DNA of 63,999 bases, filler included, from Reclinomonas americana ATCC 50394 (taxonomy: Eukaryota): the NCBI GenBank assembly GCA_048213135.1. It is 12 parts of 12 records of this genome, joined end to end, with 100 filler letters (N's around TTAATTAATTAA, not from the genome) between each part and the next. Parts side by side here need not be neighbours in the genome. Positions count along the whole stretch, not along the records: positions 14,837 to 23,391 come from AFZH01021927.1; positions 23,492 to 26,272 come from AFZH01021928.1; positions 26,373 to 27,798 come from AFZH01021929.1; positions 27,899 to 36,889 come from AFZH01021930.1; positions 36,990 to 44,858 come from AFZH01021931.1; positions 44,959 to 57,914 come from AFZH01021932.1; positions 58,015 to 59,028 come from AFZH01021933.1; positions 59,129 to 61,583 come from AFZH01021935.1; 4 more parts are not named here. One strand, 5' to 3'. Position numbers and translations under genes: made by a program. The notes beneath the pieces were generated by a model. That model saw only the letters and a program-made list of their open reading frames with translations. It did no database searches and was not told the DNA's origin. Shown here one piece after another: positions 16,242 to 61,490 of the stretch. Each line of letters begins with the position of its first letter. Position 1 is the stretch's first letter.

Positions 16242-17276
16242 ATGGAAGGGAGCGGGGTCCTCTCCCCGCACTCACCCTCCCCGCCACTCCTATCCGCCGC
16301 CTCACCACCGCTCTCCTCACACCTCAGCAGCGGCATCGGCGGCGAGGCAAGCAGCGCTCCCTCCTCCGTCTCCACCTCACCACAACCACTCGGCGTCGCC
16401 GCGCACCACGTCATACATCAACCACCGCCGCCGACGCTGGTTATTTCCTCGGCGTCCGCTGCCGCTTCGATTGTGGGTCAGGCTCCAGCGGCAGCGGCGG
16501 CGGTAGCCGTAGGAGGAGAAGGCAGCGGCGAGGTTGACATGGAACCGGCGCGGACTGCCGTTGCGAGTGTGGCGTCGTCGATGATTAGTTTGTCGAGTAA
16601 TACCCTCTATTTTCCTCGTTGCGTTCTCTTATGTAAGGGAGAGGGAGAGGGAGAGAGAGTGAGAGTGTGTGTGTGTGTGTGTCAGTTGTGTGAGGATATG
16701 TGTGCGTGGCACGCTCTCTCTGTCTCAGTATCTCTCTCTCTCTCTGTGTGTGTCTCTTGATTGTTCTTTGTGAGAGAAGTGTGTCGTTGTGTGAGTGTGA
16801 GTTGTGTGTGTGTGAGTTGTGTGACTTGTCTCATTGCTGAGAGGGTCCTCTTTGACAACTCGTATGTGATGATTGCGCGTTGAGCCCTCTGAGTGAAGTT
16901 TGTGTGCATGAGAGAGAGAGAGAGAGTTGTGTACCTCCTCCTCCTTCTCTCTCTCTCTGTGCTTTCCTTGACAACTCTCTTGTGTGATGATTGCGCGATC
17001 AGTTGAGCACTGTCACTCTCTTTCTCTTTTCTCTCTCTCTTTCTCTCTCTGTTCTCATGTGTCTGTGAGAGTGTGTGGGGTGCCTTTTGTGAGTGTGGCG
17101 TCGTCGATGATTAGTTTGTCGAGTAATACTCTCTATTTTCCTCGTTGCGTTCTCTTATGTAAGGCAGAGTGTGTGTGAGAGAGAGTGTGTGTGTGTGTGT
17201 CAGTTGTGTGAGTATATGTGTGCTTGGCACGCTCTCTGTCTCAGTATCTCTTTCTCATTGTCTCTTGTTCTCTGTG

Positions 17277-17333
<57 letters not shown>

Positions 17334-58938: not shown

Positions 58939-59154
58939 GTTGCGTGAGAGAGTGCGGTGATTCGAATGTGCGGAGAATCCACTCATCAGTCTCTCACTCT
59001 CCCTTCTCCCCTTGTGCTCTCTCTCTCTNNNNNNNNNNNNNNNNNNNNNNNNNNNNNNNNNNNNNNNNNNNNTTAATTAATTAANNNNNNNNNNNNNNNN
59101 NNNNNNNNNNNNNNNNNNNNNNNNNNNNGTCTCTATTTCGCGCTTGGACGCAAC

Positions 59155-61490
59155 GGAATTGAATGCCATCGCGGATGAAGAACACGGGGAAGTTGTTGCC
59201 GACAATGTCCCAGTTGCCCTCGCCCGTGTACATCTTGACGGCGAAGCCACGCGGATCGCGAAGCGACTCGGGCGAGTTGCGCTCGTGAATCACAGTGGAG
59301 AAGCGGAGGATCAGCGGACTGCATGTGCGTCATCAGTCAGCGAATGGCACGACTTGAAGAGAGTGGAGGAGGCGACGCAACGTGCGCTTGCCGACAGCCT
59401 TGAAGGGATCGGCGCAGGTGAGGTGCGTAATGTCGCGTGTGCACTCGAAGAAGCCCTTGGCCGAGGCGCCACTGCAAACACATCATAATGAGTGGACTCT
59501 TTCTCCACCGACGGCTGATGTGAAAGGCGGTCGGACTCACCGTGCGTGCACCACACGCTCCGGAATGCGCTCGCGGTCGAACTGGGCCAGCTTCTCGATG
59601 AGGTAGAAGTCCTGGGAGGGGGACGAAGGGGGAAGGTCAGGGGAAGAGGGAAAAGGGGGAGAGAGGGAAAGGGGAGGGGAGGAAGGGGAGGGAATACAAT
59701 CAACAAAGGGCAGGAAACTGCGGACTTCTAATCACATGAGAACGGTGAGCGAAGAGGAAACTGTTGAGGATGGCAGCGCCTTTCCTCCGACACTTGAACT
59801 CTCTTGTCACGGAGAAGAGACAAGAGGAGAACGACAGGGTGCCACATCTCGTCGTCTAGCGACAAGCAGCGAGAAAGAATGAGAGTCAGCATGGAGCAAC
59901 TTCTCGACAGAGCAGCACATAGAGAGAAGCACCGCAAGCGACAAACAGTGAGTATGAACGAGACTCACTCCTCAATTTATATCTCCGAGCAGAGGCAGAG
60001 GGAGGACGAGATACGCACGACGGACAGCAGAACGTCACAATCTCTCATTCTCCACAGAAAATATAGAGTGACGACAATCGATGAAGAGCGAAGCACATCT
60101 CTCACATTCCTGCAAGAACTCATCTCTGAGGTGCGAGACAACAGCAGTAAGCCATTCTCATTCTCCACAGATGAGAAAGAGAGCGACAACAATCCGACAG
60201 AACAGTGCAAGGGAATGCATCAACGAGAATGCAGAATAGCGACTGCTGCATACGTCTCACGATGGAGGAGGAGAAGGTGCACACCAGCAAGCAACACGTT
60301 CTCATTCTCCACAGAGTAGAAATAGAGAGAGGGAGCGACAACTGATGACATCTCTCACGTGCCGAAAAGAATGCGTATCTCCGACGTGGAAGCCATGCGA
60401 CTACTGCATGCATCTCGCGATGGAGGAAGAGTGGAGGTGCGCAACACACAGAAGCAAGCCACACACGCTCATTCTCAACGGAGAAGAGAATGCGTATCTC
60501 CGAGAATGCAGACAAGCGATTGTTGCATACTTCTCACTATGGAGGAAGGGGAGAGAGGGAGCAACAACTGATGTACAGCGTTAATCTCTCACATTCGCGC
60601 AGAATGTGCATCTCAAGCGATTGTTGCATACTTCTAGGATGCGGGAGATGCACAAACACACATCAGCAAGTCACAAACTCTTATTCTCGATGGAGGAAGG
60701 AGAGAGAGGGAACAACAATTGATGAAGAGCAGCGTACATCTCTCACATTCCCGCAGAATGTGCATCTCAAGCGATTGTTGCAACAGCAAGCCACACACTC
60801 ATTCCCCACGGAAGTCAAGAGAAAGCGACAGAACTGACAGAGCAGCGCACATCCCCACAAGAATGCGCATCTTCGAGGCGGAAGACAATCAACGCTACAT
60901 GCTTCTCACTCTCATTCTCCCAGCAGAAGCAGAAAGAAGAGGGGAAACACGCTTGCAAAAGAGAGCGACAACTGATGTGAGACGCAATAGAACAGAGAGA
61001 GAGAGAGAGAGCGTGTGTACACACTCTCCACCACCCTTCACAACACCGCACATCACATCTCCGCACATGCGGATCACTCTCTCTCTCTCTCACTCTTGAC
61101 ACGCACCTCGAGGAGAATAGGGCCGCGCACTCCCACAGTCATCGAACTGGTGTTGTTCCACACTGGCGCACCCGTGTTGGTGGTAAAGTGCGGCGGGTTG
61201 TGCGCCGTCGACGGCACATACTATTGACACAGAGAAGAGAGTGTTATACGCGCGCGGAGACATGTCACACTCCTGCGTCATCTCCGCACGAAACACGCAC
61301 ACGCACGCGCACATATGCATACACGTAGTCGGAGATGCACATTGTGTGCATGTGCAACTGTCTTCTGTGTGTGTGTGCGCGTGTGCGTGGTCGGGGTTGA
61401 CATTGTCTCTTTTCTCTTTTCGTGCGCGCGCGGAATCTGTGCGTTATCTTTCTTGCGTGTGCTGCATACCTTGCTCGGGTCGGGGTTCAT
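59155..61490 (-). CDS. CAT: Catalase paralog B, 5' part (clade-1, plant-type)
   Basis: Exons: [114 protein letters not shown]. Confidence 0.93.
59980..60930. repeat. Degenerate tandem repeat inside catalase B intron 2
   Basis: Recurring ctcattctccacaga, gagcgacaac and catctctcacattc..gcagaatg motifs, e.g. near 60047, 60160, 60304, 60471 and 60801. Confidence 0.7.

Follow-up and report, generated by a model that had tools for sequence, protein, structure and literature searches.

Five-prime splice sites of human genes that use a shifted (+1) register were reportedly described by Roca and Krainer in 2009, and a register with a bulge at +2/+3 reportedly by Roca et al. in 2012. Shifted and bulged registers of pairing between the 5' splice site and U1 have been proven in human cells, where all validated noncanonical registers amount to 1.5% of 201,541 sites (sections of PMC4856993). 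Here we describe a class of intron donors, most of them beginning GTTGCG, in a 63,999-nucleotide stretch of DNA from Reclinomonas americana ATCC 50394 (GenBank assembly GCA_048213135.1), hereafter the window. The sample is this one 64-kb window of 12 pieces, to which all counts refer, on both strands where stated. Like the human shifted (+1) sites, these donors have GU followed by U at +3, a consensus displaced one base downstream, a predicted cut at the upstream GU and a dispensable exon-final G. They differ from them in frequency, forming 38 of 143 introns against the 1.5% given in PMC4856993 for all noncanonical registers, and in their core: the A-rich core of the human sites fits standard U1, whereas the GCGU core found here, with an invariant C, would not pair with it.

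Donors of the form G/GTGCGT(G) (the slash marks the exon-intron border throughout) with CTGAC branches are described for Ostreococcus and Micromonas in passages of PMC2483917 and PMC3879977. The window shares with these genomes the unusual C at +4, G at +7, a CTGAC-type branch and GC-richness. However, they are intron-poor and have one strict donor, and a GTTGCGT class goes unmentioned in those passages; the window is rich in introns, a single Mon2 gene having about 29. In the literature searched there was no GTTGCGT-type donor class and no shifted register used as a major class in any organism, although subscription journals or supplements may hold one; among the papers listed on shifted base-pairing with U1, all concerned human, yeast or worm.

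The window is eukaryotic and intron-rich, with a G+C content of about 56%. Introns have a median length of about 70 nucleotides (nt) and a CTCAC/CTGAC/CTCAT branch motif about 17 nt upstream of CAG. The nearest proteins in large libraries are 45-59% identical, so no near relative was available for comparison, and no locus was found in metagenomes when the best Mon2 relative served as query. Genes were modeled with a purpose-written dynamic programming gene finder, using codon log-odds from 14 Pfam-supported frames and explicit intron lengths. A pass without signals gave poor boundaries, and k-mer self-training stalled on singletons. A donor-agnostic pass, in which the donor was GT only and a generic branch, acceptor and length score was applied, already had GTTGCGT as its most frequent donor heptamer, at 11 of the 130 introns it predicted; a pass restricted to canonical donors fused exons across GTTGCG introns (e.g., 28704, with 208 nt; introns are named here by the first base of the donor). 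The final passes gave an equal bonus to canonical and T-insert donor words, and the exon side, including the -1 base, was never scored. The acceptor score rewarded CT[CGA]A[CT], which makes branch-motif comparisons partly circular. These passes read through the in-frame open introns 40273, 40039 and 49562 and called one false intron, 53657. Homology corrections removed 53657, moved 49985 to 49964 and added 49562, 40273 and 40039, giving a curated set of 143 introns. A high-confidence subset (n = 92) comprises introns of 50-100 nt with a branch motif and YAG whose removal is frame-required or homology-backed.

Donors were classed by the place of the downstream G: R0 donors have G at +5, and R1 donors have T at +3, no G at +5 and G at +6. 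The curated set divides into 98 R0, 38 R1 and seven that are neither, which supports R1 as a major second donor class comprising about a quarter of introns (38/143). Beyond the three definitional positions (+3 T 38/38, +5 G 0/38, +6 G 38/38), R1 donors have T at +7 in 31/38 and follow the consensus N/GTT[G 31, T 7]C[38/38]GT[31/38], in which +4 is never A. The R0 grammar is G/GU[G>A,U][C~A]GU, with G at -1 and +5. Slid by one base, R1 overlies the R0 consensus G/GT[G]CGT, and the G at R0 +7 (47/98) recurs at R1 +8 (14/38).

The donor word is strongly over-represented. The two strands together hold 44 copies of GTTGCGT, whereas 100 dinucleotide-preserving shuffles gave 10.44 ± 2.65 and never more than 17; the word is outranked among all heptamers, by second-order Markov expectation, only by the spacer linker and simple repeats. 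The same shuffles, on both strands, give 11.3 expected copies of GGTGAGT (26 found), 10.8 of GGTGCGT (21 found) and 10.8 of GTTGAGT, which with 10 copies is at chance level; one of these 10 is intron-like. An earlier note on this DNA had listed GTTGCG as a widespread donor following exons that end in a base other than G. All 34 of its coordinates (23 on the plus strand, 11 on the minus strand) carry the motif from exactly that base, the 26 sites following its rule being preceded by A, C or T and its exceptions, 37791, 49562 and 54383, by G. The use of GTTGCG as an intron donor is borne out by the word excess, by the presence of 25 of the 29 GTTGCG sites in the curated set and by homology support for 12 of the 16 GTT[G/T]CG donors tested. 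Sites from that list not recovered are 16618, in a duplicated repeat-rich stretch; 42139, outside the gene models; 19810, inside an open frame; and 58939 and 59154, both running into N spacers. At 59154, a catalase Pfam match ends no more than two residues from the proposed donor.

The two classes part at the exon-final base. G at -1 is found in 67/98 R0 and 4/38 R1 introns of the curated set; by word class, it is found in 51/73 canonical-spacing and 4/38 T-insert donors (Fisher p = 1.4e-9). The split recurs in the high-confidence subset (47/61 vs 4/28, p = 2.6e-8), at each intron phase within that subset (phase 0, 27/32 vs 4/15; phase 1, 13/17 vs 0/6; phase 2, 7/12 vs 0/7) and in the donor-agnostic models (26/31 vs 1/14, p = 1.4e-6). 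In R1, G at -1 is at background and not avoided (4/38, vs 19% before any GT in the window; binomial p = 0.22), and GTTGCG copies not used as donors have it in 8/51. Among 52 donors with T at +3, G at -1 accompanies 11/12 of those with G at +5 and 4/38 of those with G at +6 (p = 4e-7). The deciding feature is where the downstream G lies; the T at +3 is not in itself decisive. The earlier proposal had linked +3 T with a non-G at -1; the split it predicted was found, but +3 T is not the variable, and -1 G lies at its background frequency and is not avoided.

Donors combining +3 T and +5 G are GTTCG, GTTTGC, GTTTGAGT, GTTTGT and similar. GTTTCG, GTTTGCG and GTTTGAGT had been put forward as parallel variants of GTTGCG. 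For GTTTCG this is upheld (2/3 sites in the curated set), whereas GTTTGCG and GTTTGAGT, both also in the curated set, keep +5 G and -1 G. Because of this retention, GTTTGCG and GTTTGAGT would be better read, together with GTTCG, as ordinary-register sites, not as further-shifted ones. The two introns are:

49350..49420, plus strand: intron, aag/GTTTGAGT; ordinary register (+5 G, -1 G); best of 9 alternatives, 72.7 vs 61.1 bits.
57216..57288, minus strand: intron, tcg/GTTTGCGT; ordinary register (+5 G, -1 G); gene model only.

Two other donors, G/GTTTGCCG at 45547 (plus) and G/GTTTGCCT at 22351 (minus), have T at +3 and +4, G at +5 and C at +6; the first is fixed by the profile of glutamate dehydrogenase (GDH). 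From these donors, the ordinary register appears to tolerate such mismatches when -1 G and +5 G are present. The human site GAG/GUUUGAGU is listed as canonical-register in Table 1 of PMC4856993, a +5 G being held there likely always to pair canonically.

Boundaries were tested with per-exon references and local profiles, the alternatives being frame-keeping GT-AG pairs within 30 nt (GDH). The GDH profile was built from 16 full-length homologs among 25 matches, and the spliced model aligned end to end (hidden Markov model, HMM, positions 160-475). The signal peptide peptidase (SPP) profile used 60 of the 120 matches listed, and that of Mon2 used 29 full-length proteins among 115 matches, with the model aligned over HMM 3-1491. 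Homolog profiles, Pfam coordinates or solved-structure sequences fix 12 R1 and many R0 junctions. Sixteen GTT[G/T]CG donors were tested by homology, of which the following 12, given with a canonical comparison intron, are supported at or near single-residue resolution:

40187..40273, minus strand: intron, gac/GTTGCGTG; GABA aminotransferase (GABA-AT) gene; 87 nt, in frame, no stop. In the read-through of 39806-40345 (minus) compared with solved GABA-AT chains, residues 1-23 correspond to 313-335 and 54-97 to 337-380; the unmatched residues 25-53 coincide exactly with GTTGCG...CAG (40273-40187).
39965..40039, minus strand: canonical comparison intron, tcg/GTGCGTGT; 75 nt, in frame, no stop; a second insertion relative to the GABA-AT chains.
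59319..59381, minus strand: intron, cac/GTTGCGTC; catalase gene; phase 2; Pfam Catalase 51-79, split codon, 81-136.
37791..37849, plus strand: intron, gag/GTTGCGTC; BTB-BACK gene; -1 G exception; Pfam BTB reaches profile position 75 with the final residue of the exon and continues at 77 on the second residue of the following one.
45697..45755, plus strand: intron, gat/GTTGCGTC; GDH; best of 6 alternatives, 434.8 vs 425.2 bits; shifts of +/-3 nt within 1 bit, loop region.
46254..46321, plus strand: intron, gga/GTTGCGTG; GDH; best of 6; ungapped junction; +3 shift costs 5.6 bits.
46442..46517, plus strand: intron, aat/GTTGCGCC; GDH; best of 8; ungapped junction; +3 shift costs 5.2 bits.
48226..48289, minus strand: intron, atc/GTTTCGTA (GTTTCG); SPP; Pfam 111, split codon, 113; SPP profile 294.2 vs 272.7 bits, ungapped junction; +3 shift costs 5.6 bits.
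49562..49636, plus strand: intron, ggg/GTTGCGTC; Mon2; -1 G exception; 75 nt, in frame, no stop; Mon2 profile 190.8 bits spliced vs 176.5 retained; most library matches resume at query residue 71-72, just past the intron.
50175..50244, plus strand: intron, att/GTTGCGTG; Mon2; best of 6, 40.3 vs 32.4 bits; +3 shift costs 3 bits.
52918..52981, plus strand: intron, gat/GTTTCGTG; Mon2; best of 6, 64.9 vs 48.0 bits.
53892..53965, plus strand: intron, gcc/GTTGCGTT; Mon2; best of 3, 118.7 vs 95.6 bits.
54383..54452, plus strand: intron, agg/GTTGCGTC; Mon2; -1 G exception; best of 4 GT-AG pairs, 71.5 vs 64.1 bits; a non-GT -3 shift ties.

The remaining four are a near tie (54052), two in unconserved stretches (54601 and 51079) and one false site (53657). 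The first three are:

54052..54116, plus strand: candidate intron, aat/GTTGCGTT; Mon2; second of 4, 119.8 vs 121.9 bits for a GT 9 nt downstream.
54601..54665, plus strand: intron, gca/GTTGCGTA; Mon2; frame-required, gene model only; weakly conserved region.
51079..51123, plus strand: doubtful 45-nt candidate, gcc/GTTGCGTC; Mon2; in frame, open; unconserved, profile scores below zero.

All seven GDH junctions are best among the alternatives, with no gap at 46254 or 46442, as are 49350, 50175, 52918, 53892 and 54383 in Mon2; Mon2_C profile positions are continuous within 1 across both 53892 and 54052. In the 12 supported R1 cases, the alignments show the predicted boundary to lie exactly at the G of GTT. 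Judged by their GT and AG ends, and by the restoration of frame and protein alignment on their removal, R1 introns qualify as U2-type GT-AG introns.

That the class is an artefact, whether of a GC donor three bases in, of mis-set boundaries or of a word bias in coding or repeat sequence, is hardly credible. GTTGCGT does occur in coding sequence, as at the false intron 53657, and 51 of 82 GTTGCG copies do not serve as donors; 54052 also scores 1.4 bits better with a +3 shift. Against this, the enrichment exceeds all 100 shuffles, and a GC-AG reading (GTT/GCGT) was rejected: the +3 shift loses 0.9-6.5 bits at 10/12 profile-tested junctions of the class (54601, where it is flat, and 54052 apart), and the extra residue it requires does not fit the GABA-AT, catalase, BTB and SPP coordinates. 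The candidate 53657..53716 (plus), a GTTGCGT in Mon2 coding sequence, was likewise discarded as an intron. This site, which is not in the earlier list, scores 126.3 bits retained vs 118.5 for the best spliced form, and the Pfam Mon2_C match continues through it.

Three introns that are in frame and free of stops, 39965-40039 (minus), 40187-40273 (minus) and 49562-49636 (plus), appear in read-through as silent "insertions" of 25-29 residues, exposed only by homology. In the SPP model, an 18-residue insertion relative to 60 homologs corresponds to a 60-base in-frame candidate intron at 48659-48718 (minus), with the odd donor agt/GTCGCTCA.

Apart from the donor, R1 and R0 introns are alike. Lengths do not differ (70 nt for R0 and 68.5 nt for R1). 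A branch motif was found in 31/38 R1 and 82/98 R0 introns, at a median of 17 and 17.5 nt from the 3' end, respectively (a partly circular test). The acceptor is CAG in 33/38 R1 and 87/98 R0 introns, and the phase distribution is common to both. The classes are mixed within genes, the Mon2 model having 20 non-R1 and seven R1 introns. The shared length, branch motif and 3' end argue for one spliceosome, and it is likely that a single spliceosome serves both classes.

U12-type introns have a tight intron-only donor word and no exon signal. R1 resembles them in both respects, and in forming a minority of introns, as might be expected if R1 were spliced by a distinct, minor-type (U12-like) spliceosome whose donor word had diverged. 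This is very improbable. The donor word is a different one; the branch motif, branch distance, acceptor and length are those of R0 and the major class (the branch test being partly circular); and the window holds 0 copies of the branch word TCCTTAAC and three of the donor [AG]TATCCTT. Copying of introns in the manner of introners was also rejected. In an all-against-all blastn of intron interiors, 4/703 R1 pairs reached E <= 0.01, all short and of at most 25 bits, much as in R0 (12/4753).

The class is real at the level of sequence. The best-fitting account is that R1 sites may be recognised one base out of register, in a +1 shifted reading, a proposal whose chances we consider evenly balanced. 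G+1 of R1 would then sit in the slot of the R0 exon-final G, U+3 in the slot normally held by U+2, and GCGU in those of +3 to +6. Loss of the exon-final G preference would be expected, because the intron's own G+1 takes its slot. Cleavage would stay at G+1, the only GU lying one base upstream of where the shifted register would cut, and later U6 and active-site contacts would have to tolerate one looped-out U. We infer U1 to be the reader, its 5' end in this lineage pairing with the C at R1 +5. The earlier claim of a shifted register as a major second class is thus matched by the size of the class, the one-base alignment and the loss of -1 G, but not by the C at +5 and the +4 without A, which misfit standard U1.

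Several observations weigh against the shifted reading. Given the standard U1 5' end (AUACUUACCUG; PMC4856993), pairing in a shifted helix would be best with A at +5 and with A or G at +4, and the invariant C+5 (38/38) would face a pseudouridine. R1 +5 is C 38 / A 0, compared with C 42 / A 36 at the matching R0 position (p = 2e-8), and R1 +4 has A 0 (G 31, T 7). R1 is not simply every R0 site slid by one; R0 donors with C at +4 have at +3 G 29, A 7, T 5 and C 1. GTTGAGT, the shifted twin of the common GTGAGT, is at chance (10 vs 10.8). Rfam searches of the 64-kb window, at gathering scores and at E <= 1, gave no match to a U1, U6 or other small nuclear RNA (snRNA) gene. Furthermore, 22/38 R1 introns rest on a gene finder whose final passes rewarded these donor words, the donor-agnostic pass and the homology tests being independent of that bonus, and all junctions are read from DNA alone, in one 64-kb window of 12 pieces.

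The invariant C and the disuse of GTTGAGT imply that the U1 5' end differs in this lineage, the second option offered in the earlier note, or that another reader sets the consensus. They point to three candidates: a U1 whose positions 5-6 would pair with C and with G, the presence of a second U1, or a later stage, U6/U5 or protein, at which the consensus is fixed. A U1 5' end altered to pair with donor +4 C and +3 G, alongside a routine shifted register, is a tentative possibility that we would not expect to hold. GGUGCGU would then be a perfect site and GUUGCGU the same site one base out, with a single mismatch, and GUUGAGU, with two mismatches, would fail. If true, this would be a natural case of co-evolution of donor consensus and U1, with a shifted register in routine genome-wide use and a quarter of all introns cut one base from where the U1 helix "points".

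A lineage-specific U1, with a changed 5' end or as a second paralogue, might instead be complementary to GUUGCGU in the normal register, pairing only with +1 to +7 and leaving the exon end unconstrained. R1 is indeed a tight intron-only heptamer (+5 C 38/38, +7 T 31/38) with no exon signal, and standard U1 accounts neither for the invariant C nor for the missing GTTGAGT; an snRNA change was raised by Irimia and Roy for the GTGCGTG donors of Ostreococcus (PMC2483917, in part). However, few RNA sequences are as strongly conserved as the U1 5' end, and one reader with two registers more simply explains the parallels of GGUGCGU with GUUGCGU and of GGUUCGU with GUUUCGU; we consider this U1 unlikely.

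The same intron-side pairs as in the shifted reading would be formed if a U bulged at +2/+3: G+1 and the remaining U would pair normally with C8 and A7 of U1, and GCGU would serve as +3 to +6. R1 has the GUU start and the one extra U of this register, for which validated human sites are given in PMC4856993 (legend of Figure 1C; Table 3). In that register, however, the exon-final G would still pair with C9 of U1 and should stay favoured, whereas in R1 it is found in 4/38, at background, and the invariant C at +5 is equally hard to fit. A bulge is therefore an improbable account of R1.

The split could also arise at a later step, with R0 dependent on the U5 loop through the exon-end G and R1 on intron-side contacts with the U6 ACAGA box or with LUC7- or SNRNP27K-type proteins. 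In animals and plants, exon-end G and intron-side consensus are anti-correlated (AG//GUNNN vs NN//GURAG; PMC11732430, in part), giving an exon-end and an intron-side class within the same genes, as here; PMC9803359, PMC11842720 and PMC10581693 bear on the same idea. R1 would be an extreme intron-side class. It is, however, a heptamer displaced by one, without the GURAG core (+3 U, +4 G and +5 C; GUUGC or GUUUC at +1 to +5), and in R0 the exon-end G co-occurs with +5 G (67/98) with no trade-off. The one-base displacement would still require a looped-out base at U6. As an account of R1 the later-step split is rather improbable, though it overlaps in part with the shifted reading and does not exclude it.

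If about one intron in four uses such sites under the shifted reading, the lineage would offer a natural system for how the spliceosome sets the cut independently of the U1 helix, and for how U6 copes with an extra base; proof of the human registers came from minigenes tested singly. The invariant C is a hint of change in the reader RNA itself. A gene finder with a single donor matrix would merge the registers into one weak logo and misplace or overlook R1 introns, and introns such as 40273, 40039 and 49562, being in frame and stop-free, would be read through silently as false insertions.

The remaining T-insert introns come mainly from the gene models:

18403..18461, plus strand: intron, tta/GTTGCGTC; MSP-RING; frame-required; Pfam MSP match reaches residue 52 of a 53-residue exon.
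22553..22610, minus strand: intron, gcc/GTTGCGTC; PUB-domain gene; frame-required; CTGAC branch motif, TAG acceptor.
25363..25652, minus strand: three introns, donors 25652, 25526 and 25448 (gac/, att/ and cac/GTTGCGT); gene model only, frame-required.
28851..28911, plus strand: intron, cct/GTTGCGTG; ARID/WD40; frame-required; CTCAC branch motif.
31569-31644 and 31787-31862, plus strand: two introns (cga/ and acc/GTTGCGT); WD40 region; gene model only, frame-required.
34810..36260, minus strand: three introns, donors 36260, 35711 and 34871 (cga/, gat/ and caa/GTTGCG); TTL N-terminal part; gene model only, frame-required.
37449..37535, plus strand: intron, cga/GTTTCGTT; BTB-BACK; gene model only, frame-required.
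38247..38576, plus strand: two introns, donors 38247 (aat/) and 38492 (act/GTTGCGTG); gene model only; acceptor of 38492 uncertain, with a better-looking one 63 nt downstream of the donor.
44072..44173, minus strand: intron, aaa/GTTGCGAG; HAD hydrolase; 102 nt; frame-required; HAD_2 profile at position 163/178 three residues before the donor (relaxed-threshold Pfam).
46825..46900, plus strand: intron, gtt/GTTTCGTC; gene model only, frame-required.
58292..58360, plus strand: intron, gga/GTTGCGTG; EF-hand gene; frame-required; CTGAC branch motif.
1609..24754, minus strand: weaker candidates, donors 1674, 7423, 8931, 21438 (-1 G), 21220 and 24754; gene model only; 21220 doubtful (126 nt, AAG acceptor); 1674 and 8931 in frame and open, so not frame-forced.

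Relaxed-threshold Pfam searches of 11 flanking exons added nothing beyond the HAD match. Between donors 25526 and 25448 lies a putative 16-base micro-exon, 25449-25464 (minus), in a gene without a Pfam match. A block of about 75 bases with the donor-like ctc/GTTGCGTTCTCTTATGTAAGG is duplicated at 16565-16640 and 17091-17165 (plus), 526 bases apart and with site 16618 in the first of the two; the surrounding GT, GA and CT microsatellites extend for about 1.6 kb on the upstream side of the MSP exon.

The genes of the window encode a TPR protein and MSP-RING, PUB, ARID/WD40, TTL and BTB-BACK proteins, together with GABA-AT, DnaJ, a HAD hydrolase, SPP and an EF-hand protein. GDH is present as its C-terminal two thirds and catalase as a gene start; the Mon2 protein has 1,757 residues. 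Eleven identical 100-base spacers (44 N, a TTAATTAATTAA core, 44 N) separate the 12 pieces:

9342-9441, 14737-14836, 23392-23491, 26273-26372, 27799-27898 and 36890-36989: spacer sequence.
44859-44958, 57915-58014, 59029-59128, 61584-61683 and 62897-62996: spacer sequence, continued.

Adjoining pieces are not necessarily neighbors in the genome, and GDH, catalase and HAD are among several genes cut by spacers. At E <= 1, the Rfam matches in the window were limited to microRNA-like ones on GA/CT repeats plus two weak ones resembling snoRNAs. The microRNA-family matches at 44676-44792 (plus) and 12924-13125 (minus), with E of 0.0006-0.02, score far under the gathering cutoffs and sit on palindromic GA/CT repeats; most probably they are artefacts of composition. 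A single open exon, 3496-6177 (minus), codes for 894 residues that carry about 11 repeats (TPR_10/TPR_12) of nephrocystin-3 / kinesin-light-chain type.

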